The position numbers were made by a program, and so were the translations under genes. The notes beneath the pieces are model-generated. The model saw nothing but the letters and a program-made list of their open reading frames with translations. It made no database searches and was not told the origin of the DNA. Of a stretch of 45,669 nt of DNA, positions 1-45,669 are shown piece by piece; position 1 is the stretch's first letter; each line of letters starts with the position of its first letter. This stretch comes from a virus, in IMG/VR virus record IMGVR_UViG_3300031416_000018, positions 1 to 45,669 of that record. The stretch is one strand, 5' to 3'.

Positions 1-127
1 GTTTTCAAAGAAAGAATTTGACAGTTTAAAAGAAATAATTGCCGGTAAAAATTCATTATTGAATTTTAAAGATGTTCAAATATCAGCTATTACAAAATTA
101 AATATGTCGATTAGAGATACTTTAAAA
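1..127. repeat. Terminal direct repeat copy A (identical to 45543..45669); assembly-style overlap closing a circular map
   Basis: Compared base by base: 1..127 equals 45543..45669 with no mismatch; a reading frame runs straight through the join. Confidence 0.95.
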
Positions 128-601
128 CTTGAAAGATTGGAAAAAGACGAGTTGAATAACAAAATTTGGAGGTTTGAAAAAACGTATAAAGACGGAACTA
201 AAACCAAAATAGTAATGTATGAAAAAGATACTACAGCAACTCAGGAAACGGATTTAAATGTTTATGTTACGGATTATTCAGTAAAACAAAAAGGAAAGCG
301 TTTGAATTATGTTGATGTGGTATCACAAAATAAAAACTTTACCTTAAACGGTTCCCAGGTATTGAGAATCCCAGTAAAAGATCCAAAGGATTTATTGCGT
401 ATCAATTGGGCGTCAGACTTTACAAAGGGTATAGGCAATAATGTTAACTTTATTACCTCAGAAATTAATCTACAAATTTTGCCAGATGGGAATATTGTTC
501 CTAAATTAGGATCTGGAATTATTTGGTTTACTGGGGATGGAAAAGTTTACCCATATTATAAAATAGGTGTAGACATTAATTTAAAAAGAATCAGTAAATA
601 A
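2..601 (+). CDS. C-terminal part of junction-spanning ORF (starts at ATG 45364; about 259 aa once the overlap is collapsed); N-terminally membrane-anchored lysis-cassette protein, function unknown
   Basis: The frame of listed ORF 59..601 is open back to base 2. It is the same frame as the ATG ORF at 45364 (45364..45542 + 1..601 = 780 nt). It lies between multi-TM proteins and the amidase. Confidence 0.7.
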   Translation, partial: FSKKEFDSLKEIIAGKNSLLNFKDVQISAITKLNMSIRDTLKLERLEKDELNNKIWRFEKTYKDGTKTKIVMYEKDTTATQETDLNVYVTDYSVKQKGKRLNYVDVVSQNKNFTLNGSQVLRIPVKDPKDLLRINWASDFTKGIGNNVNFITSEINLQILPDGNIVPKLGSGIIWFTGDGKVYPYYKIGVDINLKRISK

Positions 602-618
602 TTTAAAAATCAAATATT

Positions 619-1161
619 ATGATTTATTTATCAGCGGGGCACCATAATGCAGATCCTGGAGCAGTATCCGGAAATTATGTTGAAAGGGATCTAACAAAAG
701 AAATGAGAGATTTTATTAATCAAAGTTTGCCAAAAGGCCAGGTGATTAATGATAAAGATTTTGAGACAAATTCAGTTTATCAAAGCAGAATTAAACCTGG
801 GTCAGGTTCGGTAGTTTTGGATTTGCATTTTAATGCAGGGCCACCAACGGCCACCGGGACTGAGGTATATGTAAATAAAGCCGATTTTAATAATAAAAAC
901 TCTCTGTCTTATAAAATGGCCACGGAAATATGTTCCGTTACTTCAACGATCCTGGGGATACCTAACAGAGGCGTAAAGATCGAATCTAGTAGCCAACATA
1001 CTAGATTAGGTATTTTGAATTTAGGGTCAGGAGTTTCAGCCCTTTGGGAAATTTGTTTTATTTCAAGTGTATTAAATATGCAGAAATACACGGAATGCAA
1101 AAAAGAACTATCTAAAAAAATCGCTGAAATACTTATTAAGTACGATGCACTAAAACAATAA
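619..1161 (+). CDS. N-acetylmuramoyl-L-alanine amidase (Amidase_3 / MurNAc-LAA type) endolysin
   Basis: LSAGHHNADPGAVSGNYVERDLTKEM and LDLHFNAGPPTATGTEVYV match the GH..DPGA...E / H.N....G.E zinc-amidase signature; located in the lysis cassette. Confidence 0.85.
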   Translation: MIYLSAGHHNADPGAVSGNYVERDLTKEMRDFINQSLPKGQVINDKDFETNSVYQSRIKPGSGSVVLDLHFNAGPPTATGTEVYVNKADFNNKNSLSYKMATEICSVTSTILGIPNRGVKIESSSQHTRLGILNLGSGVSALWEICFISSVLNMQKYTECKKELSKKIAEILIKYDALKQ

Positions 1162-1172
1162 ATTTTTATATT

Positions 1173-1388
1173 ATGCCAAAACCACCTAAAGAAACGATGG
1201 GAGGATTCGTTGACACTATGATGTCGTTAGAAAAAACTAGAATTGAATCAGAAATACTAGTTGTAAAAGAATTAACTTTAACAAAAGAATTTGAAACCTA
1301 TGATGAGGATTTCAAATTAGCAGTTAAAAATAGACTTAAAACAATGGAAAAATATAACACTGAATTAGGTCTAACATTGTCTAACTAA
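1173..1388 (+). CDS. Hypothetical 71-aa protein, last gene of the lysis/late unit
   Basis: ATG start 11 nt after the amidase stop, followed by an intrinsic terminator; no motif recognised. Confidence 0.6.
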   Translation: MPKPPKETMGGFVDTMMSLEKTRIESEILVVKELTLTKEFETYDEDFKLAVKNRLKTMEKYNTELGLTLSN

Positions 1389-1414
1389 AAAAATGAGATG
1401 TAAATTATCTAAAT

Positions 1415-1445
1415 GGTCCAGGTTTAAAGCCTGGATCTTTTTTTT
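1415..1445 (+). terminator. Intrinsic terminator ending the late/lysis transcription unit
   Basis: GGTCCAGG-tttaaag-CCTGGATC stem followed by T8. Confidence 0.8.
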
Positions 1446-1475
1446 GTCTAAAAAGTAAAATAAATAACAATTTCT

Positions 1476-1541
1476 TTTGGTAGTTTAAATAATTGTTATA
1501 TCTTTGACATATCAAAACAAAGCGATTAGGCGTTTTCCTAA
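1476..1541 (+). promoter_or_regulatory. Early promoter-leader cassette P1: TTTG(1476)-N19-TATCTTTG(1499-1506), CAAAACAA box (1513-1520), hairpin TTAGG-CGTTTT-CCTAA (1526-1541)
   Basis: Exact match to the Bacteroidota -33/-7 consensus with a 19-nt spacer; one of four homologous cassettes. Confidence 0.8.
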
Positions 1542-1561
1542 AAATTAAAAACATTAAAATC

Positions 1562-1879
1562 ATGTTTACAACAACTTTAAAATCAGTGATGCAGTTAGCT
1601 TGGCAGTTCGTAAAAACTAACGGTTTTAGTATGTCAGAAGCTTTAAAAATGGCTTGGAAAAACATTAAATTACAATCTGAAATGAGAAAAGGAATTGTAA
1701 AGTTTTATTTCCAAAAGGTTGACGGATCAATTAGAGAGGCTTACGGAACTTTAAAAGCTGAATTATTACCAGAATTAAAAGGAACAGATAAAAAGAAAAA
1801 TGAAACGGTTCAGGCGTATTTTGATACAGAATCAAATTGTTTCAAGTCTTTTAAAAAAGCTAATTTACAATCAATATAA
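1562..1879 (+). CDS. Early protein, first gene of the P1 unit; C-terminal half possibly DUF2693/SH3-like beta-barrel phage family
   Basis: IVKFYFQKVDGSIREAYGTL...YFD...FKSF resembles that family from memory; not verifiable here. Confidence 0.5.
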   Translation: MFTTTLKSVMQLAWQFVKTNGFSMSEALKMAWKNIKLQSEMRKGIVKFYFQKVDGSIREAYGTLKAELLPELKGTDKKKNETVQAYFDTESNCFKSFKKANLQSI

Positions 1880-1881
1880 TC

Positions 1882-2076
1882 ATGAGTAATTATAAAGGCG
1901 GTATGACGGCCGCAAGGCTTCAATTTATGATCGATCTACAATACGATAAGGATTATATAGAACATAAAAATAAGGCGTTAAAATATGGTGCTATTCACGT
2001 TGTTGACAATGATCAGTATTCAGACGGTAAAAAAATATCACAAATAGTAAAAAAATATTTAAATAAAAAATCATGA
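1882..2076 (+). CDS. Hypothetical early protein (64 aa)
   Basis: ATG 2 nt after the upstream stop; ATGA overlap with the next gene. Confidence 0.6.
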   Translation: MSNYKGGMTAARLQFMIDLQYDKDYIEHKNKALKYGAIHVVDNDQYSDGKKISQIVKKYLNKKS

Positions 2077-2306
2077 AAAAAGGCAAATATTTCTACAGCA
2101 AATTAAGTTTAAGCCAAAAGGTAAATTTCAAAAATGAAGTTTTAAGAGTTTGGAAAGACGCACCGGACCCAATGAAGTATTTTAAACTGCAATTGGAAAT
2201 GAAATACGTTGATTTATATACAATGCTTATTGGATCTTTTTATTTTGAAGATACAAAGCAATGTTTTGAATATTGGGATCGCTTATCAGTAAGAAAAATT
2301 AAATAA
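2073..2306 (+). CDS. Hypothetical early protein (77 aa)
   Basis: ATGA start-stop overlap with the upstream ORF. Confidence 0.6.
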   Translation: MKKGKYFYSKLSLSQKVNFKNEVLRVWKDAPDPMKYFKLQLEMKYVDLYTMLIGSFYFEDTKQCFEYWDRLSVRKIK

Positions 2307-2310
2307 TATT

Positions 2311-2583
2311 ATGGAAACAAATACACGTCCTTTACTTGAATTATGGTTAATCGTAGAGGAAAATTTTGACGAATTGTTTGAAACTGGAATTTGCAATATT
2401 GTATTTAAATTAAGGTATATAGTAATTTTCACAATGCAAGAGGAAAAAGTTTTGATTAAAATAGTAGATCATTACATAACCGATGAATTAAATATATTTA
2501 GTATTTACGGTTGGCCATCTGGAGAAAAAGAACCACGAAAACAATTTATACAGGATCAAATATTAAACGAGTTGAGAAAATGA
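2311..2583 (+). CDS. Hypothetical early protein (90 aa)
   Basis: Tightly packed ATG ORF. Confidence 0.6.
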   Translation: METNTRPLLELWLIVEENFDELFETGICNIVFKLRYIVIFTMQEEKVLIKIVDHYITDELNIFSIYGWPSGEKEPRKQFIQDQILNELRK

Positions 2584-2837
2584 AAAGGTATAGTAAATCA
2601 GAACAAAATGCCAGAAACTTGCGTTATAATCGTTTCCGGAAAAATGAACTTCAATTATTAGCATTAGATTATGATGTTTATCCAGGTGCTAAAAACACAT
2701 TTATGTTTTGGTTTATTCATGAAATATATGGTAAGGTTATAATTTATCCAAAGAGTAATAAATTACAAACCGAGTCCGGTTCCTGGCATAATGATGCTAA
2801 TTATTTTTTAAGGAAATTTATAATTAAGGAAAAATGA
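2580..2837 (+). CDS. Hypothetical early protein (85 aa) with arginine-rich N-terminus
   Basis: Start moved from the listed 2511 to ATG 2580 (ATGA overlap with the upstream stop). N-terminus MKRYSKSEQNARNLRYNRFRKN has 8 K/R in 22 residues. Confidence 0.55.
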   Translation: MKRYSKSEQNARNLRYNRFRKNELQLLALDYDVYPGAKNTFMFWFIHEIYGKVIIYPKSNKLQTESGSWHNDANYFLRKFIIKEK

Positions 2838-3085
2838 ATAATAAAACAAAGTATGTTTGGAGACGTTGGAGGGGTAACGGTTCAATAATAGCGGATATAA
2901 TGAAACCTAAATATTATGATTATCCAAAACACAGACACAAAAGGCCATTTTTATTAAGTGAAGTTTTTGTAAAAGAAATAACACGAGAACAATATTTTGC
3001 AGAAAAAGAAATGTTATCGTGTACGGATTATTTGAAAAAGATTCAACTAATGAAAGAATATGATTCTAAGTTTAATAAAAAATAG
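2834..3085 (+). CDS. Hypothetical early protein (83 aa)
   Basis: ATGA overlap upstream; followed directly by a terminator. Confidence 0.6.
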   Translation: MNNKTKYVWRRWRGNGSIIADIMKPKYYDYPKHRHKRPFLLSEVFVKEITREQYFAEKEMLSCTDYLKKIQLMKEYDSKFNKK

Positions 3086-3113
3086 AACCCGCTTTTTTAA
3101 GGCGGGTTTTTAT
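3086..3113 (+). terminator. Intrinsic terminator ending the P1 unit
   Basis: AACCCGC-ttttttaag-GCGGGTT then a T-run. Confidence 0.75.
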
Positions 3114-3205
3114 ATTTAGAATCAATGTGAGCGTTACATTGACGTCTGACAAAAGTACGTAAAAAAAATAATTTCAAAAAAATATTTCAACATATAAACA
3201 AAACC

Positions 3206-3268
3206 TTTGGTAATTTAAATAAAAGTTATATATTTGTAAGACAAAACAACGACATGGCGATTTCCATG
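3206..3268 (+). promoter_or_regulatory. Early promoter-leader cassette P2: TTTG(3206)-N19-TATATTTG(3229-3236), CAAAACAA (3242-3249), hairpin CATGG-CGATTT-CCATG (3253-3268)
   Basis: Consensus Bacteroidota promoter; the leader is 35 nt identical to cassette P4. Confidence 0.8.
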
Positions 3269-3287
3269 AAACTAAAATATCATTATC

Positions 3288-3686
3288 ATGACTATTAAAA
3301 ACACTAAAGTATTATACAATTTGTCAATTTTAGCACAAATGCCAGTATATGATTTTACAGAACTTTTAATTTCTGAACTTGAAAAAAAAGAACTTGTATT
3401 TAACGATTCAGATAATTACGGTAAAACCATAAAAACGGTAATGGATGGAACTTTAGGTTATTTAAATTTTGTTTCTGTTTTAGAGGCGGTTAATTTACCT
3501 AAAAGATCAGCAATAATCGCAGAAATATTGGATCTTATTTTGTGGGGTGATGGTGATTGTATTGAATGCGGTGGAGAAATGGAGGTTGTAGACGGTGAGT
3601 ATAGAGAGGATAAAGATACTGGTGAAAAAATACCAGTATGGGAGGTGAAACAATGCCAGTGTTGTGGATTTAAAACAAGTAAATAA
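3288..3686 (+). CDS. Hypothetical protein with C-terminal zinc-ribbon (CxxC...CxxC)
   Basis: CIECGGEMEVV...CQCCGFK four-Cys motif; first gene of the P2 unit. Confidence 0.6.
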   Translation: MTIKNTKVLYNLSILAQMPVYDFTELLISELEKKELVFNDSDNYGKTIKTVMDGTLGYLNFVSVLEAVNLPKRSAIIAEILDLILWGDGDCIECGGEMEVVDGEYREDKDTGEKIPVWEVKQCQCCGFKTSK

Positions 3687-3700
3687 TTAAAAATAAAAAT

Positions 3701-3955
3701 ATGTTAGTATTAAGAGTAAATGAAGCAATTGCGCGAGCGCAAACAAACGGTAAAAATGTAAATAAAAAAGTTATTGCCGCGTTATTGTGGCCAGATTCGA
3801 AAGAATCAACACAGCAGGTTAATATGACGTTCCTATCAAATGGTAGGACATCATCTATTAAATTTGAATGGATCACAATTTTATGTAGAGAATTAGATTG
3901 TACACCAAATTACTTATTTGGATTTAATGAAGAAACGGAAAACGATGAGCAATAA
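3701..3955 (+). CDS. XRE-family helix-turn-helix transcriptional regulator
   Basis: KKVIAALLWPDS...ITILCRELDCTPNYLFGF resembles the HTH_3 helix-turn-helix with the typical ..YL.G ending. Confidence 0.55.
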   Translation: MLVLRVNEAIARAQTNGKNVNKKVIAALLWPDSKESTQQVNMTFLSNGRTSSIKFEWITILCRELDCTPNYLFGFNEETENDEQ

Positions 3956-4118
3956 ATATCATGACCGACTTTGGATTAAAGGAATGATTTATTTCTTTAT
4001 GTTCCTTACTGTAGTATGTATAATTGCGGGGTTTTATAATCCCTGGCAATGGGGTTTGGCTGTTTTATTCAGCTTTATGATAGCGATAGGAGTTAGTGAG
4101 TTAAAAAATTTAAAATAA
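3945..4118 (+). CDS. Small two-TM membrane protein (57 aa)
   Basis: Start moved to ATG 3945. Two hydrophobic helices: IYFFMFLTVVCIIAGF and GLAVLFSFMIAIGV. Confidence 0.5.
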   Translation: MSNKYHDRLWIKGMIYFFMFLTVVCIIAGFYNPWQWGLAVLFSFMIAIGVSELKNLK

Positions 4119-4128
4119 AATAAATCAA

Positions 4129-4761
4129 ATGGCAGCAACAAAATTAAATCTTTTAGAGAAAATCCAATTAGTAGCAAATGAAATTGGTAACATTGAAAAA
4201 ACAATGCAGGTTGGAAACGGGTCATATGCTTATAAGGCGGTAAGTGATTTGGATGTAACATTAGCAGTTAAAAAAGCTGAAACAAAACACAGGATTTTAA
4301 GTATTCCAATAAAACAAGATCTGGTAAATTCAGAAATTGTAAGAACGGTAAAGGGTAAAGACCTCGTAGAAAGTGTTACGTATGTAGATACTATTAAAAT
4401 GACTGTTAAAATTTGGGATTTGGATGATGTTACCCAATTTATAGAGGTTGAAAGCTTTGGGCGTGGTATTGATAATGGCGATAAAGGTTTTGGAAAATCA
4501 TCAACATATGCAAGAAAGTACGCCCTTTTGAATGCTTATAAAATTGCTACAGGTGCAGATCCAGACGCGAATAAAAGTGAGGAAATTTTGGTACCTAAAA
4601 CAGTATCAGATAAAAGAAAAGCAATTGAAAATTATTTCAATCAGGATGTTACCAGACTTCAAAATATGTTAAGTCATTATAATATTAGTGAGGTTAGCGA
4701 TTTAACAGAAACGCAGATTAAGGAACTATACAATACGTACAACACAAAAGGCAAATTATAA
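4129..4761 (+). CDS. erf: ERF-family single-strand annealing recombinase
   Basis: GRGIDNGDKGFGKSSTYARKYALLNAYKIATGADPD matches the conserved ERF core motif. Confidence 0.75.
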   Translation: MAATKLNLLEKIQLVANEIGNIEKTMQVGNGSYAYKAVSDLDVTLAVKKAETKHRILSIPIKQDLVNSEIVRTVKGKDLVESVTYVDTIKMTVKIWDLDDVTQFIEVESFGRGIDNGDKGFGKSSTYARKYALLNAYKIATGADPDANKSEEILVPKTVSDKRKAIENYFNQDVTRLQNMLSHYNISEVSDLTETQIKELYNTYNTKGKL

Positions 4762-5552
4762 TGATATTAACGATAGGTAGCGGTGATATCTCATATTTAA
4801 CTATGAGTAAAGACACAAAAGGATATCAGGATTTATTGAGGCGTTTTGTAGCTGAATACAGGCCTTATTGGAATTCATTTGCGAGTCCTATAGATGCATT
4901 AAGAACGGGCGCAATATTAGAAATTAATTATTTGAAACATTTGCCGGATGGTTACATATTTCAAAAGAAAGTCGAATTTGAGGAAATGGATGTTTTTGTT
5001 AGTTCTATTGATTTTGCAAAAATAGAGAATGGAAAAGTTGTTGATTTTGATGAGTTGAAAACAATATTTTTAACTGATTATATAGATTTGATTATTCCGT
5101 TTAAAGATACTCCAGAAGAAATTTATTTGCCTATGATCAAAAAGAATTTCAAAAAAAACTATAATCAAATTCAGGCTCAATTAATGTGCGCAAAACTTAA
5201 GGCTGCTAATTTAGTTTTTATGTCTGCAACAACTTATGAAGATGATGAAAACGAAGTAAGAGAAATAAGTGAAAAAGATTACGTTAAATTTAGAATCAAT
5301 AGGGATGAGGATATAATATCAGAGATCAAAGAAAAAGGAAAGTTTTTCCAGATGATCAAAGATAATTTTAAGACTGAGAAAAAACAGAAAAAAAAGAAAG
5401 CAACTAAAAAGACCGAAACATTGCCAAAAACAGATGAAATTGTTATTGATGAGGTGTTTGTACGTGAAGGCATAAAAGAGCCTGAAATTGAGCCTGAAAT
5501 GCCTGAAATTTCAATTGTAAATAGTTTGCTAGATACTACAGATGATTTTTAA
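4761..5552 (+). CDS. Putative PD-(D/E)XK (YqaJ/lambda-Exo-like) recombination nuclease with Lys-rich/acidic tail
   Basis: SSIDFAKIENGKVVDFDELKT gives D...(D/E)xK spacing; directly downstream of erf (TAATG overlap). Confidence 0.45.
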   Translation: MILTIGSGDISYLTMSKDTKGYQDLLRRFVAEYRPYWNSFASPIDALRTGAILEINYLKHLPDGYIFQKKVEFEEMDVFVSSIDFAKIENGKVVDFDELKTIFLTDYIDLIIPFKDTPEEIYLPMIKKNFKKNYNQIQAQLMCAKLKAANLVFMSATTYEDDENEVREISEKDYVKFRINRDEDIISEIKEKGKFFQMIKDNFKTEKKQKKKKATKKTETLPKTDEIVIDEVFVREGIKEPEIEPEMPEISIVNSLLDTTDDF

Positions 5553-5563
5553 AACTTTATGAC

Positions 5564-5956
5564 ATGAAAAATAAAACAGACAAAAAGCAATTAAAAGAAG
5601 TCAATAACCCAGGTTCACGAACTCAGAAATTAAAAGACATTAAAAACGCCCAGGATGTTCTGGAGTTTATAAAAAACAATCTTACCTGTATTGGAAATAC
5701 TTTTTTACAGCAAGGCGAATCATGTTTTTCCAGGAAAGAAAAAGTAAATAAAAAGCCTGAAATTTCATTAGAGGGTAAATATAGTATTCCAGAGGCAGCC
5801 GAATATCTAAAATTAAAAGAAGGAACTTTTGCAGCCAGGACCAGAACATTTAAATTACCTTTTGAAAAGGTTGGAAAGATGAAGTATTTCACCCAGGAAA
5901 CATTGGACCATCACAAAGCAACTACAGTTTTTAAACCTCGAAATGAAAAATATTAA
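5564..5956 (+). CDS. Excisionase/MerR-like helix-turn-helix DNA-binding protein
   Basis: YSIPEAAEYLKLKEGTFAARTRTFKLPFEKVGKMKYFTQETL resembles the excisionase-type HTH. Confidence 0.45.
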   Translation: MKNKTDKKQLKEVNNPGSRTQKLKDIKNAQDVLEFIKNNLTCIGNTFLQQGESCFSRKEKVNKKPEISLEGKYSIPEAAEYLKLKEGTFAARTRTFKLPFEKVGKMKYFTQETLDHHKATTVFKPRNEKY

Positions 5957-5968
5957 AACTTATTAATA

Positions 5969-6859
5969 ATGGATCATCATTTTAATATTAAAATAGCTAA
6001 AAAGTTAGATGTTGAAAGTGCTATTCTAATCCATAATTTTTATTTCTGGATTAAAAAAAACGAGGCAAATAAAAAACATTTTTACGATGGTTATACATGG
6101 ACTTATAACTCAGTTTCAGCATTAGAAGAATTGTTCCCTTATTGGTCACGTAGACAGATAGAAAGAATAATTAATAATTTAGTTTCAAAAGGAATTTTAT
6201 TTAAAGGAAATTACAATGAAAATAAATATGATCGTACTACGTGGTATGCATTACACCAAAGAGTGGAAAGCATTTACACTAATGGGGAATTGCATTCCAC
6301 CAAACGGGGAAATGGAATCCACCAAACGGTGGAACCTATACCATATAGTAAACTAGATAATAATACAGTTAATAATGTTTTTGTCTCAGGGAATAAATTC
6401 CCATCGACCGACCAAGAAAAAAAAGAAGAGAAAACGGGAGAATTATTTGGAGATGAAATAGAGGTAAATATCAATTATGATTACGGTGAAGAAATACCCA
6501 AAAAAGTTGCGCGAAAAAAGGTAGGGGATAAAACGTTTTTATTTAGAAATTCTGATGTTTATAAATTAGTTAATTTTGATGATGAGAATAATCCAAATTA
6601 TTCAAACTTTGAAAATCTTTTTAAAGGCCCAAATTTCGACTCAATTGATTTGGTTTACTATTTTCACAGCGTTTTAGATTGGAGCGATACAAGGGATAAA
6701 AAAACACTACGTAGCAATAAAGGATGGATTGCGACGGTTAGATCATTTATCCGTGGAGACATTGGAAAAGATAAGTTGAAATTAAAAGTAGAGTTTCAAC
6801 AAAGCCATCAAAAAAGCGATTCGGATGCAATGTTGAAATTTTTAAATAATAACTATTAG
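5969..6859 (+). CDS. Replication-initiator-like DNA-binding protein (N-terminal winged helix; lambda O-like role inferred)
   Basis: The N-terminus (AILIHNFYFWIKK...WTYNSVSALEELFPYWSRRQIERIINNLVSKGIL) is typical of phage replication-organiser HTH domains. Iteron-like repeats lie inside the gene. Confidence 0.5.
   Translation: MDHHFNIKIAKKLDVESAILIHNFYFWIKKNEANKKHFYDGYTWTYNSVSALEELFPYWSRRQIERIINNLVSKGILFKGNYNENKYDRTTWYALHQRVESIYTNGELHSTKRGNGIHQTVEPIPYSKLDNNTVNNVFVSGNKFPSTDQEKKEEKTGELFGDEIEVNINYDYGEEIPKKVARKKVGDKTFLFRNSDVYKLVNFDDENNPNYSNFENLFKGPNFDSIDLVYYFHSVLDWSDTRDKKTLRSNKGWIATVRSFIRGDIGKDKLKLKVEFQQSHQKSDSDAMLKFLNNNY
6253..6334. repeat. Three phased iteron-like repeats (consensus CACCAAAnnGTGGAA) at 6253, 6297 and 6319, followed by an AT-rich tract
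   Basis: ACACCAAAGAGTGGAA / CCACCAAACGGGGAAA / CCACCAAACGGTGGAA; spacing 44 and 22 bp; AT-rich 6341-6385. Confidence 0.6.
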
Positions 6860-6860
6860 T

Positions 6861-7781
6861 ATGGAAAATTTACCACAAAAAAAAGAAAACACTTTTTTAG
6901 AGTTAAGGAAACCAGGTGTTAAAGCAATTGACAAAAGACGCCAAATGATAGAGATACCAGAAGTTACAAAAAACCTCAACACAATAGAAAAGTATATTTT
7001 TCAGGCTTCAACAAAAACATTGATTTCTGAAATGTATGATACTGATTTGGTAAATGAGACGAAAAATATTTTTAAGTTTATTGCAAAAGATGTTGGCTTT
7101 AGGATTCCAACAGATCAGAATGAATGGCAATACATTTGCGCCCGCCTTTTAAAGTATTTGAAAATGTATCATTCGGGTTTGGCGTTGTCTGAAATACCAT
7201 TGGCATTTGAATTGGCTGTAAATGGAACTTTAGATGAGTTTTTGCCAAAATTAAAAGATGGGTCACCGGACCGGAATCATTACCAGGAATTTAACATTGA
7301 TTTTTTTTCAAAAATTCTTAAGGCTTACAAAGAGAAACAAGGCAGTGTAGTAAGCAAGGCATCTGATAATATACCGCTTATTGAGTATGTTCCAAACCAG
7401 GAGGAAATAAAGCAAAATTATAATTCAACGGTTGAAAGCTGCAGACAATGTTTTATTGAATACAAAGAAACTGGAGTTTTAAAATTGGATGGATTAAAAT
7501 CAATGTTTGTATGGGAATGGCTCCAAGGTCATAACCTCATCAAGGAACCAAAAATAACTGATGAGGTACGGGAGCAGGCCTTAAATGAATTTTTAGGAAA
7601 AGCGGCATTAGGATTTGTAAACCGATACACAGCATCAGTTGTAAAAAATGAGGGATCAAATTCTAAAGCATTGGATTTTCCATCCCTGGAAATTGCGCGG
7701 AGCAATCAGATAAAAAGAGTTTTTGACGCTATGATTAAAAAAGACATAGACGTAACTAAATATTTAAATTACAAATTATGA
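6861..7781 (+). CDS. Hypothetical protein downstream of the initiator (possible replication accessory protein)
   Basis: ATG 2 nt after the upstream stop; no catalytic motif recognised. Confidence 0.6.
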   Translation: MENLPQKKENTFLELRKPGVKAIDKRRQMIEIPEVTKNLNTIEKYIFQASTKTLISEMYDTDLVNETKNIFKFIAKDVGFRIPTDQNEWQYICARLLKYLKMYHSGLALSEIPLAFELAVNGTLDEFLPKLKDGSPDRNHYQEFNIDFFSKILKAYKEKQGSVVSKASDNIPLIEYVPNQEEIKQNYNSTVESCRQCFIEYKETGVLKLDGLKSMFVWEWLQGHNLIKEPKITDEVREQALNEFLGKAALGFVNRYTASVVKNEGSNSKALDFPSLEIARSNQIKRVFDAMIKKDIDVTKYLNYKL

Positions 7782-8305
7782 ATACAAAAATAGATTGCAT
7801 CATTGGAATAGATCCGGGAGCCTCAGGAGGTATTACGGTTTATAGACCAAACAATAAAGAGGTTTCAATAAAGAATCCCAAAAATATATCTGATTTACGG
7901 GAATATCTGGATTATTACAAAGGTATTTCAAGCCCTTTAGTTTTCCTGGAGAAAGTACAATTTCATAAAGAGGATGCAGCGTCAGGAAAAACATTTGGGA
8001 TTGAGAAGTTAGTCAGGAATTTCGAGCAACTGAAAACAACTATAGAGGTGATGGATATACCTTTTATTTTAGTGCATCCTATAACCTGGCAAAGTAGATT
8101 AAACATAAGGCTTAAAAAAGAGGAAAAAGCCGCCAGAAAAAAGAGATATAAAGAACTCGCACAACGGTACTATCCAGACTTAAAAGCAACTATGTATAAT
8201 TGTGATGCGACATTGATCATGCATTTTGGCCGATGGGCTTTAAGAAATGATGTTAAATGGATTATGGAAAATTTACCTCAAAGAAATCATGATAAATTAT
8301 TTTAA
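7778..8305 (+). CDS. RuvC-like Holliday junction resolvase
   Basis: N-terminal IIGIDPGASGG (RuvC catalytic Asp motif), VFLEKV (Glu), CDATLIMHFG (C-terminal Asp). Confidence 0.65.
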   Translation: MNTKIDCIIGIDPGASGGITVYRPNNKEVSIKNPKNISDLREYLDYYKGISSPLVFLEKVQFHKEDAASGKTFGIEKLVRNFEQLKTTIEVMDIPFILVHPITWQSRLNIRLKKEEKAARKKRYKELAQRYYPDLKATMYNCDATLIMHFGRWALRNDVKWIMENLPQRNHDKLF

Positions 8306-9550
8306 ATGGAAAAGTTAAAAATAGGCACCGTTTGTAGTGGTATAGGATCACCAGAAATGGCATTAAAAAATTTGGGTGTGGATCATGAAATATCTTTTGC
8401 ATGTGAAATTGATAAATATGCTAGAAAATCATATTTAGAAAACTTCATGCCTAATCTAATGATTAACGACATGACCAAACAAAAATGGGAAAATAATAAT
8501 TTGTATTCTGATATTTTTATTGGTGGGATTCCTTGCCAGGCGTTTAGTTTGGCCGGTAAACGATTGGGAGAATTAGACCCTAGGGGGTTGTTATTTTTTG
8601 ATTTTTATAGGTATGTTGATAATCAAAGACCTAAATATTTTATTATTGAAAATGTAAAAGGTTTGTTAAGTATGGATAGAGGCAGAGTATTTCAAAATTG
8701 GAAAGATCTTTTAGGTAGAAGTGAAAACGGTATTGAGTATTTTTTTAAAAATCCGGATTCTTTAAATTACAACTTACATTGGCAAGTATTGAACACAAAA
8801 GATTACGGATTGCCTCAAAATAGAGAACGTGTTTTTTTAATAGGAATAAGAGAAGATTTACCAAATGATTTTATTTTCCCAAAAAAGAAAATATTAAAAT
8901 TGAGATTGAAACATGTATTAGAAAAGGAAGTTGATGAAAAATATTATTTGAGTGATAAAATGATAAATTATTTAGTTTCACAACAAGACAAAAGAGCAAA
9001 TAAATTTACTGATGTTGAATATAAAAATATTGCTAATTGTATTACTTCAAATTATTCAAAACAATCAACTGACTGCGAGTATATAATTGGAGCAATGAGA
9101 GGTAGAAATCCAGACAATCCAAAGGCAAGAGTTCCCGGACAATCGCACCAACAAATGTTGGAAATTAATGAAAATGGAATATCAAATTGTTTGTCAACTG
9201 TTCAAAAGGATAATCTGGTTATTGAATTTGATTTTCCAAAAGTAGAGTATCAATTAACAGGTGGTAAATGGGATAAAACACATGAACAATCAGGCAGAGT
9301 ATATAGTAAAAATGGAATTGCACCAACTATTCACACTATGGGAGGTGGAAATCAAGAACCAAAAATTTCAGAGGGTATAAATGTTAGAAAATTAACCCCT
9401 TTGGAGTGTTTCCGTTTGCAAGGTTATTCAGATGATTTTTTTCATAAATGCAAAAATGTTAATTCTGACACCCAATTGTATAAACAGGCAGGGAACACAA
9501 TTAGTGTTCCAGTCATTCAAGCAATTTTAAAGAATATTTTAAAAATATGA
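8306..9550 (+). CDS. DNA (cytosine-5)-methyltransferase, orphan
   Basis: Motif I GTVCSGIGSPE, IV GGIPCQAFSLAG, VI ENVKGL, VIII QNRERVFLIG, X GNTISVPV, all in canonical order. Confidence 0.95.
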   Translation: MEKLKIGTVCSGIGSPEMALKNLGVDHEISFACEIDKYARKSYLENFMPNLMINDMTKQKWENNNLYSDIFIGGIPCQAFSLAGKRLGELDPRGLLFFDFYRYVDNQRPKYFIIENVKGLLSMDRGRVFQNWKDLLGRSENGIEYFFKNPDSLNYNLHWQVLNTKDYGLPQNRERVFLIGIREDLPNDFIFPKKKILKLRLKHVLEKEVDEKYYLSDKMINYLVSQQDKRANKFTDVEYKNIANCITSNYSKQSTDCEYIIGAMRGRNPDNPKARVPGQSHQQMLEINENGISNCLSTVQKDNLVIEFDFPKVEYQLTGGKWDKTHEQSGRVYSKNGIAPTIHTMGGGNQEPKISEGINVRKLTPLECFRLQGYSDDFFHKCKNVNSDTQLYKQAGNTISVPVIQAILKNILKI

Positions 9551-9747
9551 TCATGGAGAATGATAAAAAAGATGTAGAAACGTTAACCTTAAAAGATTTT
9601 ATTATTCTGGTAAAAGAAATGAGATTTAACCAAAGGCGTTTTAGAAAATCATCAAAACAGGCTATAAAGGAAACTTTGGAACCTTTGGAAATTGAGGTTG
9701 ATGATTTGGTTGCACGGTATTTAGAAAGACAATCTAAATTATTTTAA
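9547..9747 (+). CDS. Hypothetical protein (66 aa)
   Basis: ATGA overlap with the methyltransferase stop. Confidence 0.6.
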   Translation: MIMENDKKDVETLTLKDFIILVKEMRFNQRRFRKSSKQAIKETLEPLEIEVDDLVARYLERQSKLF

Positions 9748-9765
9748 TAAAAATATAATAAATCT

Positions 9766-9826
9766 TTTGGTAGTTTAAATAAAAGTTATATATTTGACAA
9801 AACAAAACGATGTGGCGTTTTCCACA
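9766..9826 (+). promoter_or_regulatory. Early promoter-leader cassette P3: TTTG(9766)-N19-TATATTTG(9789-9796), CAAAACAA (9798-9805), hairpin TGTGG-CGTTTT-CCACA (9811-9826)
   Basis: Consensus promoter; the hairpin stem differs from other copies but stays paired. Confidence 0.8.
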
Positions 9827-9847
9827 AAACAATAAAAATTCAATACA

Positions 9848-10054
9848 ATGACAACATCAGGAATGAAAATTTGTCTAAATCAAAACAATAATAATTTTTC
9901 AATTAGTGATAATGAAAATGAGTTAAGTTTTGTTTTTAGTGATCACTTAAATAAATATTTGGTCATTTTCAATAGCAAGGTAATGGCAAGTTCTAAAACG
10001 ATTAATTGGCCATTTATAAAATTCAATCAATTAAAAGAAAAGTATAATCTATAA
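9848..10054 (+). CDS. Hypothetical protein (68 aa), first gene of the P3 unit
   Basis: ATG about 20 nt after the leader hairpin. Confidence 0.55.
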   Translation: MTTSGMKICLNQNNNNFSISDNENELSFVFSDHLNKYLVIFNSKVMASSKTINWPFIKFNQLKEKYNL

Positions 10055-10065
10055 AAAAATAAATC

Positions 10066-11418
10066 ATGCACATTAAAAAGCTAGAATTGTTAAATTTCAA
10101 CGGAATAGAATCATTTAATTCCGAATTTACCGGGGGAATATATTTCCTAACAGGTGATAACGAGGTTGGAAAGTCAACTTTATTAAATGCAATAGGCACT
10201 TTATTAGATGGCAAAAGGGGTGAGGTTTTGAAAAATGGTGAGGAAAAAGGTTTTGCTAAAATGGTAATAGGCGATGATCAAAAAGAATATGAAGTTGATT
10301 TAAAGTTTAGTAAGGCAAACCCACGCGGAACACTTTCAATAAAATCTGATGATGGGATGAAGTCCGAAAACGTTAGTATGCTACAAAAGATTTTCGGGTA
10401 TACGGATTTTGATGCTGTAGAGTTTTCCAGATGGTCTGAAACCGTGGAAGGTAGACGTAAGCAAATCAAAGTTGTTAAATCTTTACTTTCTGATGATATT
10501 CAAAAAAGGATCGATGAAATTGATTTAGATGTTGAGAAAAAAAAGGAGGTTAGAAAGGATCTAAATTCAGAGGTAAAAACATATACTGCAATAGTTAAAA
10601 ACGCAGCCGTTGGACTAAAGCAGGAAGATATAAAAACCTATTCGAAAAAGATTGAAATTGATGCCTTAATGCAAAAGCAATCCGAAAACGCTCAACTAAT
10701 TGAAAAAGCAAAAACGGTTCGCACTTCATTGGCTCAAAGGATTCAACAATTGGAAGATATTCCACAAAGAAAAATAAAAATAGCAACTGATTTTGAAGAA
10801 TTTGAAAAAGATCTTTTAGATAAAATTGCAGAGGCAAAAGAAAAAGCCGAAAAAGAATTAGCATTTATTGATAATGAAAGATTGGATTTTGAAACTAAAA
10901 AAACAAATGCTGAAAAATGGTTAGAAGCTTATGAGGCTAATAACCCAGAAAAAACAAATATTGCTGAACAGCTAAAAGAAGCCCAGGAACATAATGAAAA
11001 ACACACTAAGGTGTTTGACTATGTTACTAAGAAAAAAGAATTAACAAGCGTTGAAGCAAAGGCGAAAACATATGATGATGATATTGCAGCATTGTTGGCA
11101 GAACGTGAAACAATTATTTCTACCTCATCATTACCAATTGAGGGATTAACATTCACTGAGGATGGATTAGAATTAAAAGGAATCCCGTTCGTACCTGGTA
11201 AAGTTTCCGATTCACAAATTATGGAAGTTGCTTTAAAATTAACTGTAGCCGTAAATAAAAATGCTAAAATAGTCAAAGTTGCCAGAGGTGAAAGTTTAGG
11301 CGCGGCCAGGTTACAAGAAATCATAAACTTTGCTAAAAAAGAAGGCTTCCAGGGATTCATTGAGAATGTTGTTAGAGGCCAACAGGAATTGAGAGTTGAG
11401 GAATATATTGAAAAATAA
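10066..11418 (+). CDS. SMC/SbcC/RecF-like AAA ATPase with long coiled coil
   Basis: N-terminal KLELLNFNG...LTGDNEVGKSTLLNAI (Walker A); central heptad-rich region; C-terminal VSDSQIMEVALKL (signature-like) and IVKVARGESLG. Confidence 0.7.
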   Translation: MHIKKLELLNFNGIESFNSEFTGGIYFLTGDNEVGKSTLLNAIGTLLDGKRGEVLKNGEEKGFAKMVIGDDQKEYEVDLKFSKANPRGTLSIKSDDGMKSENVSMLQKIFGYTDFDAVEFSRWSETVEGRRKQIKVVKSLLSDDIQKRIDEIDLDVEKKKEVRKDLNSEVKTYTAIVKNAAVGLKQEDIKTYSKKIEIDALMQKQSENAQLIEKAKTVRTSLAQRIQQLEDIPQRKIKIATDFEEFEKDLLDKIAEAKEKAEKELAFIDNERLDFETKKTNAEKWLEAYEANNPEKTNIAEQLKEAQEHNEKHTKVFDYVTKKKELTSVEAKAKTYDDDIAALLAERETIISTSSLPIEGLTFTEDGLELKGIPFVPGKVSDSQIMEVALKLTVAVNKNAKIVKVARGESLGAARLQEIINFAKKEGFQGFIENVVRGQQELRVEEYIEK

Positions 11419-11846
11419 TGATCAATCAAAAAATCCAAATAGGCAGCATAGATAAAAACGGTAATTTGGCAATGTACATGCAAGAACTAAACGAGTTCTT
11501 TGCTAAAAATAAAAGTTCCAAAGTAATATGCCAATTTACCGTTTTAAAAAAAGATGCATCCGAGGCGATAAAAGGATATTATTTCCTTTCTGTAGTGCCT
11601 CAGTTTAAGAAGGCTATTTACGAAAGTGGCGATGTAAAGACCCATGAACAAACAGATTTATTTTTACGCAGTTTGTCACCAATTACGCGGGAGGAATTTA
11701 TTGACCCATCGACCGGAAAGTACGAACACAGGATCAAAGAAATAAACGAACTTTCTAACCCTGAATTAGTCGATCACATTGAATATTTAAAACAGATTGC
11801 CGCTGAGGAATACGGCATGTTTATCGAAGACCCAAAACAATTTTAA
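11418..11846 (+). CDS. Hypothetical protein (142 aa)
   Basis: TAATG overlap with the ATPase gene. Confidence 0.6.
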   Translation: MINQKIQIGSIDKNGNLAMYMQELNEFFAKNKSSKVICQFTVLKKDASEAIKGYYFLSVVPQFKKAIYESGDVKTHEQTDLFLRSLSPITREEFIDPSTGKYEHRIKEINELSNPELVDHIEYLKQIAAEEYGMFIEDPKQF

Positions 11847-11849
11847 ATC

Positions 11850-12131
11850 ATGGAAAAGAAAAACGGAGATAAATCCATAAATCCACAAATCCAAAGTAAC
11901 ACTAATAAAGATCATTTACTATCTGAAATATGGCACGATGAAAAAAACCAAGGATTAACAAAAAGAGAATATTTTTCCGGGCTTTTTATTCAGGGTATTT
12001 TATCCTCTCAAACCGAATTAAGAGCAAACGGAAATGATAACCATACTTTTGGCGGATCAGTTGAAAATATAGTTACAGAGGCTTTAATAATTACAGACGA
12101 ACTTTTAAAACAATTAGAAAAACAATTATGA
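11850..12131 (+). CDS. Hypothetical protein (93 aa)
   Basis: Tightly packed ATG ORF. Confidence 0.6.
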   Translation: MEKKNGDKSINPQIQSNTNKDHLLSEIWHDEKNQGLTKREYFSGLFIQGILSSQTELRANGNDNHTFGGSVENIVTEALIITDELLKQLEKQL

Positions 12132-16261: not shown

Positions 16262-16320
16262 ATTTGTCAATGCCTAAAGGATAGACATTTTTATAGCTTT
16301 TTTCAAATGATTTATTTTTG

Positions 16321-16355
16321 ACCACCGTTATTTATTTGACGGTGGTTTTATTTTT
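16321..16355 (+). terminator. Intrinsic terminator inside the early region
   Basis: ACCACCGT-tatttatttg-ACGGTGGT then TTTATTTTT. Confidence 0.75.
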
Positions 16356-16920: not shown

Positions 16921-16984
16921 TTTGGTAGTTTAAAAAATAGTTATATCTTTACTACATCAAAACAACGACATGGCGATTTCCATG
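16921..16984 (+). promoter_or_regulatory. Early promoter-leader cassette P4: TTTG(16921)-N19-TATCTTTA(16944-16951), CAAAACAA (16958-16965), hairpin CATGG-CGATTT-CCATG (16969-16984)
   Basis: 33 nt upstream half identical to P1; 35 nt leader identical to P2. Confidence 0.75.
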
Positions 16985-17004: not shown

Positions 17005-17226
17005 ATGAACCGTAAATTAAAAAAAGTCACAAAGCAAAAAGAAGCGAGAGACAAACAGTACAAAGTTGCATTTATTCAATCAATGGCACTTTCAAACTAT
17101 TTGAAATTATGCATTAAATTGAAAGAAGTTCCAAGATTAGACATTGTTAATATGTTGGAAGAATGTCAAGATACAACGCAACTAATGCAATCAAATAAAA
17201 TTTTCGTATCACATTTACAAAAGTAA
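17005..17226 (+). CDS. 73-aa protein with a strongly basic N-terminus; candidate RNA-binding regulator (N-like antiterminator hypothesis)
   Basis: MNRKLKKVTKQKEARDKQYK has 9 K/R in the first 20 residues; it is the only gene between cassette P4 and terminator 17234. Confidence 0.6.
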   Translation: MNRKLKKVTKQKEARDKQYKVAFIQSMALSNYLKLCIKLKEVPRLDIVNMLEECQDTTQLMQSNKIFVSHLQK

Positions 17227-17233: not shown

Positions 17234-17254
17234 ACCGGGGGAAACCCCGGTTTT
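17234..17254 (+). terminator. Intrinsic terminator-like hairpin with GAAA loop
   Basis: ACCGGGG-GAAA-CCCCGGT followed by TTTT. Confidence 0.6.
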
Positions 17255-17266: not shown

Positions 17267-17572
17267 ATGGAAAGATTCACACAAACTGACTTAATTATTG
17301 GGGGATTATCACAAATTAATAATAACGAATCGGGACATTTAGTTGTCGAATATGATTCTTTTAATCGTTTTTATCCTGAACAAATAGAACCTTATTTAAA
17401 AAACCTTAATTATAAACTTATTTTAAGCAAGAATATTGGAAAAGATTTTGAAATAGGCATTGCTGAATGGATAAAAAAAACCCAGGAGGAATTGGATTCT
17501 GAAAACCTTGATTTACAAATTAAAAGAATTGAAAAACAATTTAACATTACAATCACTTATGAAAAAAACTAA
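17267..17572 (+). CDS. Hypothetical protein (101 aa)
   Basis: ATG 12 nt after the terminator; no promoter between. Confidence 0.6.
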   Translation: MERFTQTDLIIGGLSQINNNESGHLVVEYDSFNRFYPEQIEPYLKNLNYKLILSKNIGKDFEIGIAEWIKKTQEELDSENLDLQIKRIEKQFNITITYEKN

Positions 17573-18541: not shown

Positions 18542-18689
18542 CATAAAAGAAGACAATACGAACGGTAAAGTATTTTTTATATTAGTAGTAATTGCTGTAA
18601 TAGTAAGTGTAGTATGTTACATAGGTGAAAGTATGAAAAAAGACAGTTCAAATATTACCACTAGGACGAACTGTTTTCCATTAAAATAA
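18534..18689 (+). CDS. Unlisted 51-aa single-TM protein
   Basis: Hand translation: MSSIKEDNTNGKVFFILVVIAVIVSVVCYIGESMKKDSSNITTRTNCFPLK*; 8-nt overlap upstream. Confidence 0.45.
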   Translation: MSSIKEDNTNGKVFFILVVIAVIVSVVCYIGESMKKDSSNITTRTNCFPLK

Positions 18690-18690
18690 A

Positions 18691-18730
18691 GCGGATGCCG
18701 AAAAGCTAAAGAGTAGGCAAAAATTAATAA
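18691..18730 (+). promoter_or_regulatory. Conserved upstream motif, copy A: CGGA-GCCGAA-N11-TAGGCAAA...TTAATAA
   Basis: Shares CGGA, GCCGAA, AAG, TAGGCAAA and TTAATAA blocks in the same order and at similar distance to the ATG as 19266..19311. Confidence 0.45.
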
Positions 18731-18742: not shown

Positions 18743-18925
18743 ATGAAAAGATTAAAAAAAATCTCAAAAGAAAACATGAAATCAATCAACGGAGGAATGA
18801 AATGGATTAAAGATGGGTGTAGGGATGGAAACGTAGAAGACAGAAGGCCAGGAGCATCACCCGTTTGGTGGCAAAAAATAGAAAATTTTGCTTACAATTT
18901 TTGGAACTGTGATCAACATTTATAA
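18743..18925 (+). CDS. Double-glycine-leader (bacteriocin-type signal) peptide precursor: 18-aa leader plus 42-aa Trp-rich two-Cys core
   Basis: MKRLKKISKENMKSINGG | MKWIKDGCRDG...FWNCDQHL. The leader fits the MKxLxxxxxxxLxxIxGG pattern of class II bacteriocin/GG-motif peptides. Confidence 0.6.
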   Translation: MKRLKKISKENMKSINGGMKWIKDGCRDGNVEDRRPGASPVWWQKIENFAYNFWNCDQHL

Positions 18926-25202: not shown

Positions 25203-25230
25203 AACCTATCACAAATGATAGGTTTTTTTA
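25203..25230 (+). terminator. Strong intrinsic terminator after terL
   Basis: AACCTATCA-caaa-TGATAGGTT then T7. Confidence 0.8.
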
Positions 25231-25232
25231 TT

Positions 25233-25240
25233 TATCTTTG
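25233..25240 (+). promoter_or_regulatory. Possible -7 promoter box TATCTTTG directly after the terminator
   Basis: Matches TAnnTTTG, but no TTTG lies 19-21 nt upstream. Confidence 0.3.
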
Positions 25241-30565: not shown

Positions 30566-30590
30566 TACTTTTTTAAATTTATTATAATCG

Positions 30591-30624
30591 AAGGGATAGG
30601 ATTTTGTTTCCTATCCCTTTTTTA
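30591..30624 (+). terminator. Intrinsic terminator after the capsid gene
   Basis: AAGGGATAGGA-ttttgtt-TCCTATCCCTT then T5. Confidence 0.8.
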
Positions 30625-44294: not shown

Positions 44295-44299
44295 TTTAA

Positions 44300-44327
44300 A
44301 ACCACCTTAACGGGTGGTTTTTTTATA
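44300..44327 (+). terminator. Intrinsic terminator after the fibre gene
   Basis: AACCACC-ttaacg-GGTGGTT then T-run. Confidence 0.8.
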
Positions 44328-44352
44328 ATTACTTGTAAATTAGGTAAATTTG
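44322..44352 (+). promoter_or_regulatory. Candidate promoter of the lysis cassette: TTTA-N19-TAAATTTG
   Basis: The -7 box matches TAnnTTTG exactly; the -33 has one mismatch. Confidence 0.45.
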
Positions 44353-45374: not shown

Positions 45375-45669
45375 AAACATTTTAATTGTATTTATTGCGG
45401 CTATATTTATTGCCTCTTTTACATTCGTTTTGAAAAAATGTAGCGAGTTGCCGCCAGAAGTAATTGCGGGCAAATTAGAGCAGGTAAAGGACAAAAACGG
45501 AAACACGCATTTTAGAAAAGAAGTTGTAAAAAACACAACTGAGTTTTCAAAGAAAGAATTTGACAGTTTAAAAGAAATAATTGCCGGTAAAAATTCATTA
45601 TTGAATTTTAAAGATGTTCAAATATCAGCTATTACAAAATTAAATATGTCGATTAGAGATACTTTAAAA
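45364..45669 (+). CDS. N-terminal part of the junction-spanning ORF (continues at base 2..601)
   Basis: ATG 45364. MKSKNILIVFIAAIFIASFTFVLKKC is a signal-anchor. The frame is open to the window end and matches the frame at the window start. Confidence 0.7.
   Translation, partial: MKSKNILIVFIAAIFIASFTFVLKKCSELPPEVIAGKLEQVKDKNGNTHFRKEVVKNTTEFSKKEFDSLKEIIAGKNSLLNFKDVQISAITKLNMSIRDTLK
45543..45669. repeat. Terminal direct repeat copy B (identical to 1..127)
   Basis: See 1..127. Confidence 0.95.

Follow-up and report, generated by a model that had tools for sequence, protein, structure and literature searches.

A putative RNA hairpin with a conserved loop occurs four times in the virus record IMGVR_UViG_3300031416_000018 of IMG/VR, of which all 45,669 nucleotides (nt) were analysed (referred to below as the window). 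Each copy lies shortly behind a promoter of the early gene blocks, and the composite of promoter, leader and hairpin is called a cassette here ('early' timing is assigned from gene content throughout). Comparison with related phages indicates that the pairing of the hairpin is under selection and that its constant partner is the downstream start codon, not the promoter. We consider it likely that the element has an RNA-level function that is linked to the start codon. On the complete statement, namely a post-transcriptional RNA element of early genes that lies at the ribosome-binding edge and is probably bound by a factor, our confidence and our doubt are about equal.

The cassettes had been placed at 1476, 3206, 9766 and 16921 by an initial annotation of the sequence, and all four were recovered at these positions. 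Each carries the Bacteroidota -33/-7 consensus that had been recognized there (TTTG, a 19-nt spacer and TAnnTTT(G/A)). The degenerate 30-nt promoter word TTTGGTARTTTAAAWAWWWGTTATATMTTT matches the window at the four cassettes only, always on the + strand, and 100 shuffled sequences gave no match. The parts of the cassettes are as follows:

1476..1506, + strand: promoter of cassette 1, with -33 element TTTG at 1476-1479, a 19-nt spacer and -7 box TATCTTTG at 1499-1506
1526..1541, + strand: hairpin 1, TTAGG-CGTTTT-CCTAA, ending 20 nt 5' of the ATG at 1562 (WYL_2 Sm-like gene)
3206..3236, + strand: promoter of cassette 2, with -33 element TTTG and -7 box TATATTTG, preceded by a strong terminator at 3084-3110
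3253..3268, + strand: hairpin 2, CATGG-CGATTT-CCATG, ending 19 nt 5' of the ATG at 3288
9766..9796, + strand: promoter of cassette 3, with -33 element TTTG and -7 box TATATTTG
9811..9826, + strand: hairpin 3, TGTGG-CGTTTT-CCACA, ending 21 nt 5' of the ATG at 9848
16921..16951, + strand: promoter of cassette 4, with -33 element TTTG and -7 box TATCTTTA
16969..16984, + strand: hairpin 4, CATGG-CGATTT-CCATG, ending 20 nt 5' of the ATG at 17005

The cassettes head non-structural gene blocks. Between the -7 boxes (which end at 1506, 3236, 9796 and 16951) and the hairpins lies an A/C-rich leader of 14-19 nt that finishes with (A/G)CGA. The placement of the hairpin downstream of the -7 box thus stands, but the range of 15-20 nt that had been given for this distance does not: the actual values are 19, 16, 14 and 17 nt for copies 1-4. 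From the promoter positions the hairpin is predicted to occupy approximately +10 to +30 of each early transcript of the window. The spacer between hairpin and ATG is A-rich and measures 20, 19, 21 and 20 nt, a regularity that the initial annotation does not mention. With a covariance model the four seed copies score 38-43 bits and the next match in the window 13.9 bits (E = 0.18); by this model there is no fifth copy. The folding energies are weak and unremarkable (-3.0 to -5.1 kcal/mol, with z-scores of -0.65 to -2.4), and the case for a structure therefore rests on covariation.

An exact terminal duplication of 127 nt (bases 1-127 are identical to 45543-45669) represents a circular assembly overlap, and the window is therefore a complete, circularly assembled phage genome of ~45.5 kb. 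Its G+C content is 33.4% and, from our reading of its list of open reading frames (ORFs), the + strand carries all plausible genes. A megablast of window positions 1-12000 against INPHARED gave no match to deposited phages, so relatives were sought through searches with proteins and motifs. The large terminase shares 72-74% identity with its counterparts in Elizabethkingia phage TCUEAP2, Parabacteroides phages PDS1 and PD491P1, Bacteroides phages BKO1-3 and C1_85S2P, and Alistipes phage AS73P1; for the B124-14 group the identity is 55-57%. A search with ORF 9547-9747 as query found no more than 8 close homologues, through which three Logan assemblies were retrieved (SRR29078265, SRR29026056 and SRR13089932, here L394, L395 and L396), which are close, AT-rich relatives of the window of ~46 kb each.

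These three assemblies retain the position-specific stems of the window at cassettes 1-4, save for cassette 2 in L395 and L396, where both this cassette and the small-ORF block after cassette 1 are missing. The stem of hairpin 1 is identical at the orthologous site in all three, hairpin 3 has become TGGGG/CCTCA in L395 and L396 (a U-A pair changed to G.U, which still pairs), and the orthologues of hairpin 4 in L394 and L395 have the loop CGUUUU. A hairpin of the form xxxGG-CG(N)(N)UU-CCxxx is furthermore present in TCUEAP2, PDS1, BKO1-3 and more than 100 IMG/VR contigs. Four promoter cassettes occupy the homologous places in TCUEAP2, G.U pairs (CGGGG/CCTCG) being present in two; in PDS1 and BKO1-3 there are three to four copies apiece, with the loop variant CGGGUU among them. 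No such hairpin was found in B124-14 and Riemerella phage RAP44. Scanning IMG/VR with the pattern ACGA-NNN-GGCGWTTTCC-NNN-AAA, which leaves the three outer stem positions free, yielded at least 120 loci; all but one unrelated coding sequence are cassettes in gut phage contigs, many of ~45 kb, and their outer triplets are CCG/CGG, CCC/GGG and CGG/CCG, apart from a few variants with G.U or a single C.A. When contigs binned as genomes were scanned, 7 of 121 were paired among the matches listed, the real ones being phage contigs in gut metagenome-assembled genomes.

Altogether at least nine distinct stems with complete Watson-Crick pairing were observed (TTAGG, CATGG, TGTGG, TGCGG, TACGG, CCGGG, CCCGG, CGGGG and CCGGC). 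TGCGG/CCGCA and TACGG/CCGTA are among those added by the relatives, and in CCGGC/GCCGG even the closing pair is flipped. The pairing in homologous cassettes of relatives, which had been proposed as a check on the structure, is thus preserved. The loops are CGUUUU and CGAUUU in the window and also CGGGUU, CGCAUU, CGGAUU and CGUAUU among relatives; positions 1, 2, 5 and 6 are constant in these hairpins, and CG..UU is kept across phages of Flavobacteriales and Bacteroidales hosts. Directly 5' of the stem ACGA is conserved as well, and the 3' flank is A-rich.

For an unbiased count of pairing, every site of the form NNNGG-CGNNTT-CCNNN was taken and the outer stem was ignored in the selection. Where an ORF-starting ATG lies 18-22 nt downstream (76 unique sites), 65 are fully paired at the three outer positions, 4 more pair via G.U and 5 have one mismatch, against only 4 of the 68 sites without such an ATG (chance would give ~1 in 64). 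In an alignment of 38 sequences, again not selected for outer-stem pairing, 96.3% of the cells pair and both sides change in every one of the three variable pairs. Double changes occur in 26 cells against 6.7±1.8 after shuffling (none of 500 shuffles reaches the observed value), and the covariation score is 0.418, compared to 0.099 for shuffled alignments and at most 0.112 for slid registers. The covariation that the initial annotation had read from four copies is therefore borne out by compensatory changes at all three variable pairs, beyond both kinds of control. The same changes lend support to its proposal that a structure, in the simplest case RNA, is selected on the sense strand. Moreover, three different stems coexist in one genome, which rules out a dimeric operator of double-stranded DNA as the reason for the complementarity. 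An asymmetry between G.U and C.A pairs was also considered as a strand test and discarded as uninformative.

A second helix can be drawn in the same region: (A)AAACG in the 5' flank can pair with the loop CGUUUU (window 1516-1536 and 9803-9821), so that the two helices are mutually exclusive, and the alternative one is the minimum-free-energy fold of copy 1. Across relatives, flank and loop (alignment columns 4-9 with 16-21) pair in 75.9% of the cells against 35-46% for slid registers, and the flank becomes (U/A)CCG where the loop is CGGGUU. This may point to a two-state element or may be a coincidence of A-rich and U-rich composition. A pseudoknot between flank and loop was rejected, since the arms interleave without a connecting loop and only a mutually exclusive helix is feasible; the statistics are merely suggestive.

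A further regularity concerns the distance to the start codon. The collection comprises 115 unique copies, and in 95 of them an ORF of at least 40 codons begins with an ATG 18-22 nt past the end of the hairpin (18 nt in 14 copies, 19 in 21, 20 in 28, 21 in 25 and 22 in 7), even though the spacer sequences diverge. In these 95 copies a hairpin with conserved loop bases thus stands beside the ribosome-binding region, as it does in translational operators. The distance from the -7 box is more variable (14-20 nt across promoter-bearing copies), and among the 97 copies with a nearby ATG 50 have an upstream -33/-7 promoter and 47 do not. A recount gave 44 promoter-less copies, most of which begin 5-14 nt past the stop codon of the preceding ORF; loops other than CGWUUU are found only among promoter-less copies. 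Given that half of the copies lack a promoter and nonetheless keep the spacing of 18-22 nt, the start codon is the constant partner of the hairpin. In the window, TCUEAP2, PDS1 and BKO1-3 the covariance-model hits of at least 25 bits share the strand of the genes and lie in the early/replication half, and no hit of this strength falls in structural or lysis genes of these four genomes.

The other parts of the cassette proved to be generic. The extended promoter word TTTGGTAGTTTAAAnnnnnGTTATAT occurs at 14 unrelated IMG/VR loci, before unrelated genes and a transfer RNA, and never with this hairpin. Likewise, a -7 box followed after a short gap by CAAAACAA was found at 118 or more unrelated IMG/VR loci, none of which has the hairpin, and in the leader columns of the 38-sequence alignment only A-richness and the stem-adjacent ACGA are kept. 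Consequently the CAAAACAA box, which the initial annotation had noted in each of the four copies, is generic and is not maintained among hairpin-bearing relatives; as a candidate boxA it was rejected on the same hairpin-less occurrences. As promoter and box both exist without the hairpin at unrelated loci, the comparison identifies the promoter as a strong generic Bacteroidota consensus, the A-rich box as an ordinary leader of the phylum, and the hairpin as the specific part.

To see which hairpins precede start codons in general, perfect hairpins 12-25 nt 5' of ORF starts were surveyed in the relatives with no constraint on the loop. The loops are mainly CGUUUU, CGCAAU, CGGGUU, CGAUUU, GAAA, GCAA and UUCG(U), and each of these dominant loops is much rarer away from ORF starts. 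GNRA and UUCG tetraloops are RNA-specific stability motifs; we regard the element as RNA because such loops occur at the same place and because the hairpin is sense-oriented and tied to the start codon. In TCUEAP2, PDS1 and BKO1-3 hairpins of the GNRA class precede ATGs by 14-17 nt, and the window has one hairpin of this kind:

17234..17251, + strand: GNRA hairpin ACCGGGG-GAAA-CCCCGGT, ending 15 nt 5' of the ATG at 17267 and followed by UUUU

This hairpin follows the first small gene of unit 4 and could be an attenuator; it is very G+C-rich for a genome of 33% G+C. GC-rich hairpins with a U-run are found after this gene both in the window (17234-17251) and in TCUEAP2 (39014-39031), and a terminator-like hairpin lies inside unit 3 at 16320-16347. 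Units 1 and 2 are bounded by strong terminators directly upstream of their promoters, at 3084-3110 for the second and for the first at:

1415..1437, + strand: terminator-like hairpin with a T-run at the end of the late/lysis block, shortly before cassette 1

None of the four cassette hairpins is itself built as an intrinsic terminator: on the sense strand an A-run (AAA) and no U-tract follows the stem, and the antisense strand gives weak terminator-like scores only.

Taken together, the analysis establishes the structure with its covariation, its strand and its spacing, the restriction to early genes and the independence from promoters. We propose that the conserved unit is a small sense-strand RNA stem-loop in which two G-C pairs close a stem of 5 bp around the loop CG(N)(N)UU, with ACGA on the 5' side and A-rich sequence on the 3' side. 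It would be placed in front of selected early genes, either in the 5' leader or between two cistrons, with its 3' end 18-22 nt from the start codon. This distance upstream of an AUG corresponds to the upstream edge of the messenger RNA (mRNA) that is held by an initiating 30S subunit, and the hairpin would accordingly sit at the 5' edge of the 30S-occupied region. In the window it happens to be fused to four copies of a strong host-type -33/-7 promoter, and its action would be post-transcriptional, on the downstream cistron. A factor that reads the loop would bind the hairpin as an operator or 'early-mRNA tag', and the bound factor would alter ribosome access, mRNA decay, or both across the early class.

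The operator part of this proposal is tentative, although it is the version that we favour, on three grounds: stems drift but the loop and the ACGA flank stay constant, the stems of the window are too weak to act alone, and confinement to the early class suggests class-wide control as with T4 RegA and RegB. Weak stems with a conserved CG..UU are more in keeping with a factor that recognizes the hairpin than with a passive thermodynamic block. Several points weigh against the proposal. Gene-content profiling and searches of Pfam and PHROG gave no convincing candidate for a binding protein, and the proteins that hairpin-bearing phages have in common and that are absent from hairpin-less B124-14 are numerous and unannotated. 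Many of the counted copies come from closely related gut phages, so that cell counts overstate the number of independent events. The wobble pairs are uninformative on the strand (5 G.U cells against 7 non-standard cells, several of them C.A), and the preference for RNA over single-stranded DNA, and for translation over stability, is inferred from geometry. Finally, the generic tetraloop hairpins at the equivalent place suggest that a stable hairpin of any kind may suffice, and this speaks for a structural role that needs no specific factor.

Such a factor-free element, which would mark the 5' boundary of an unstructured A-rich landing pad and serve as insulator against upstream structure, as ribosome standby site or as a 'ruler' that sets Shine-Dalgarno-independent Bacteroidota 30S subunits on the AUG ~20 nt downstream, is in our view unlikely. 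It would account for an ATG spacing that stays tight though the spacer sequences diverge, for the generic stable loops (GAAA, GCAA and UUCG) 14-17 nt before ATGs, and for the location of the hairpins at first cistrons and after gaps, where initiation is de novo, and not at overlapping stop/start junctions. It also agrees with the statement, in a passage of PMC7797042, that Bacteroidota ribosomes do not use Shine-Dalgarno pairing. Nonetheless, it leaves the conservation of CG..UU and ACGA amid drifting stems unexplained, the highly expressed late genes are entirely without the hairpin, and stems of -3 to -5 kcal/mol are weak for an insulator. A more specific version, in which 30S subunits (or S1/platform proteins) would dock on the CG(N)(N)UU stem-loop and thereby place the P site 18-22 nt downstream as a Shine-Dalgarno-independent 'ruler' for ribosome recruitment, is distinctly unlikely. 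A determinant of mRNA processing or stability, by which the hairpin would guide or block a ribonuclease and set the half-lives of early messages, is unlikely too. It could act as a 5' protective cap after cleavage at ACGA or as a 3' barrier for the upstream cistron, and the stable intercistronic hairpins of T4 and T7 are a precedent. The start of intercistronic copies 5-14 nt past stop codons, the conserved ACGA immediately 5' of the stem and the restriction to early genes all agree with this. On the other hand, there is no cistron for the promoter-proximal copies 1 and 2 to protect, since they follow the terminators at 1415-1437 and 3084-3110, ~8-14 unpaired nt are predicted 5' of the hairpin, which would not suit a 5'-terminal stabiliser unless the RNA is processed, and a weak stem makes a poor exonuclease block.

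The initial annotation had compared the cassettes to the nut sites of lambdoid phages, in which a nascent hairpin and an upstream box would recruit a phage or host factor and render RNA polymerase resistant to terminators. The hairpins at ~+10 to +30 of transcripts from four identical promoters, the 5-bp stem (the size of boxB) and the terminator-like hairpins within or after the first gene of units (16320-16347, 17234-17251 with UUUU, and 39014-39031 in TCUEAP2) are in line with this comparison. Nevertheless, we consider it quite improbable and the boxA/boxB analogy unsupported: no boxA-like word is conserved and the A-rich box is generic, the pyrimidine-rich hexaloop CG(N)(N)UU is not GNRA-like, and no conserved N-like protein was found. 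Furthermore, half of the copies are intercistronic, without a promoter and with a fixed ATG distance of 18-22 nt that antitermination does not need, and strong terminators separate units with their own promoters, so that read-through is unneeded there. Least probable of all are explanations at the DNA level, namely modules for recombination that shuffle ORFans, similar to the promoter-early stem-loop (PeSL) cassettes of T4-type phages, a palindromic protein operator, or a terminator for the antisense strand. One PeSL subclass does carry its stem-loop beyond the -10 box (PMC2839356), homologues of the genes that directly follow cassettes 3 and 4 are missing from the relatives, and minus-strand hairpins score as weak terminator-like sites. 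Recombination leaves the compensatory stem changes, the asymmetric conserved loop and the ATG spacing unexplained, however, a single dimeric operator protein is incompatible with three stems per genome, and with all genes on one strand there is little for an antisense terminator to stop. The recombination-module reading can coexist with an RNA function.

No family of Rfam 15 matches any of the cassettes, neither at the gathering score nor at E<=10. The genome paper of phiPDS1 does not mention promoters and hairpins, and no description of the element was found in the literature on TCUEAP2, on promoters and stem-loops of Bacteroides phages and on translation in Bacteroidetes. The Rfam and literature searches are thus consistent with the earlier remark that an equivalent has not been described for Bacteroidota phages.

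Resemblance to known systems is partial in all cases. With lambda-type nut sites the element shares a 5-bp stem-loop of nascent RNA near early promoters, several copies per genome and A-rich surroundings; it differs in having a hexaloop instead of the purine-rich, GNRA-like pentaloop of boxB, in the many copies far from promoters at a strict 18-22 nt from the ATG, and in the lack of both a conserved boxA (the NusB/S10 site) and a detectable N-like protein. Closer are the translational operators of phages (gp43, RegA and MS2 coat protein), which likewise involve a hairpin of 16-18 nt with conserved loop bases at or upstream of the ribosome-binding region. The operator hairpin of T4/RB69 gp43 is described in PMC3014915, and RegA of T4 offers a parallel for the class-wide control of early messages that is proposed here (PMC3014915). 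The resemblance to RegA, RegB and gp43 is one of logic and not of sequence. In contrast to these operators, the element occurs in 3-7 copies per genome before unrelated genes and is not autogenous, and it overlaps neither the start codon nor a Shine-Dalgarno sequence, which the host phylum does not use. Operators of the gp43, coat-protein or thrS type act through a specific RNA-binding repressor that blocks initiation, and for the present element gene-content and domain searches gave no candidate of this kind.

PeSL cassettes combine a strong early promoter with a stem-loop beside ORFans (PMC2839356). Both systems consist of repeated composites of ~100 bp with a host-type early promoter, a stem-loop and a start codon, accompanied by variable ORFans. 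However, PeSL stem-loops are terminators or attenuators with G/C-runs at a variable place relative to the promoter, while the present hairpins have no U-tract, a covarying stem and a conserved loop, and also occur without a promoter in relatives. T4 furthermore has stable intercistronic hairpins with C(UUCG)G tetraloops. These resemble the small, regular intercistronic GAAA, GCAA and UUCG classes of the relatives and the hairpin at 17234-17251 of the window, but not the four cassette hairpins with their sequence-specific hexaloop and weak stems. Compared to a 5'-terminal stabiliser of the ompA type, which stands only a few nt from the 5' end of the mRNA, the hairpin lies 14-20 nt past the -7 box and is predicted to leave ~8-14 unpaired nt at the 5' end.

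The genes around the cassettes were inspected as well. The first gene after cassette 1 (1562-1879, + strand) encodes a WYL_2 (PF10902) Sm-like SH3-barrel protein, which shares 74% identity with the protein encoded at this place in TCUEAP2. The U-rich loop makes it a tempting universal partner of the hairpin, but it was rejected as such: the gut relatives lack it, and Riemerella phages without the hairpin, RAP44 among them, encode it. The proteins encoded first after the cassettes vary from phage to phage, and no conserved arginine-rich protein is among them. Small basic ORFs are present at 17005-17226 and 9547-9747, the former of which is not conserved, and near the cassettes no Pfam or PHROG match to an arginine-rich antiterminator was obtained. 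The ORFs at 9848-10054, 17005-17226 and 17267-17572, which follow cassettes 3 and 4, have no homologue in TCUEAP2, PDS1 and BKO1-3, and the flanking genes are conserved. This pattern suggests gene replacement at cassettes 3 and 4, similar to the modular shuffling of the PeSL type.

Some further elements lie outside the cassettes. Classical terminators with hairpin and U-run are found in the late region at 25203-25240, 30590-30620 and 44298-44352. Two of these are followed within ~10-25 nt by a lone -7-like box with no -33 element (TATCTTTG at 25233-25240 and TAAATTTG at 44345-44352), and such boxes may be late promoters that need a phage factor. At 18688-18719 (+ strand) the window matches the Rfam DUF805b RNA (RF02914) with 46.8 bits, where the gathering score is 35.6. 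This strong match ends 23 nt before the ATG at 18743 and is another small structured element just 5' of a start codon; the ORF from this ATG has 60 amino acids, and its N-terminus resembles a double-glycine leader (…SINGG).

Overall, the alignments and distances argue for a cis-acting hairpin in leader and intercistronic RNA that would represent a new sequence family with a new positional rule, in a phylum without Shine-Dalgarno pairing. How start sites are marked, and how genes are regulated post-transcriptionally, is largely unknown for Bacteroidota and their phages. The motif is present in cultured phage-host pairs (TCUEAP2 with Elizabethkingia anophelis, PDS1 with Parabacteroides distasonis, BKO1-3 with Bacteroides koreensis and AS73P1 with Alistipes shahii), so that the question can be tested directly. 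Should a factor bind the hairpin, the two would form a new RNA-protein pair for the control of early genes, and possibly a portable part for the engineering of Bacteroides. If instead the ribosome reads the hairpin, it would be a new initiation signal; in the 'ruler' form, early mRNAs of the phage would gain privileged access to host ribosomes, a bacterial solution akin to an internal ribosome entry site (IRES).

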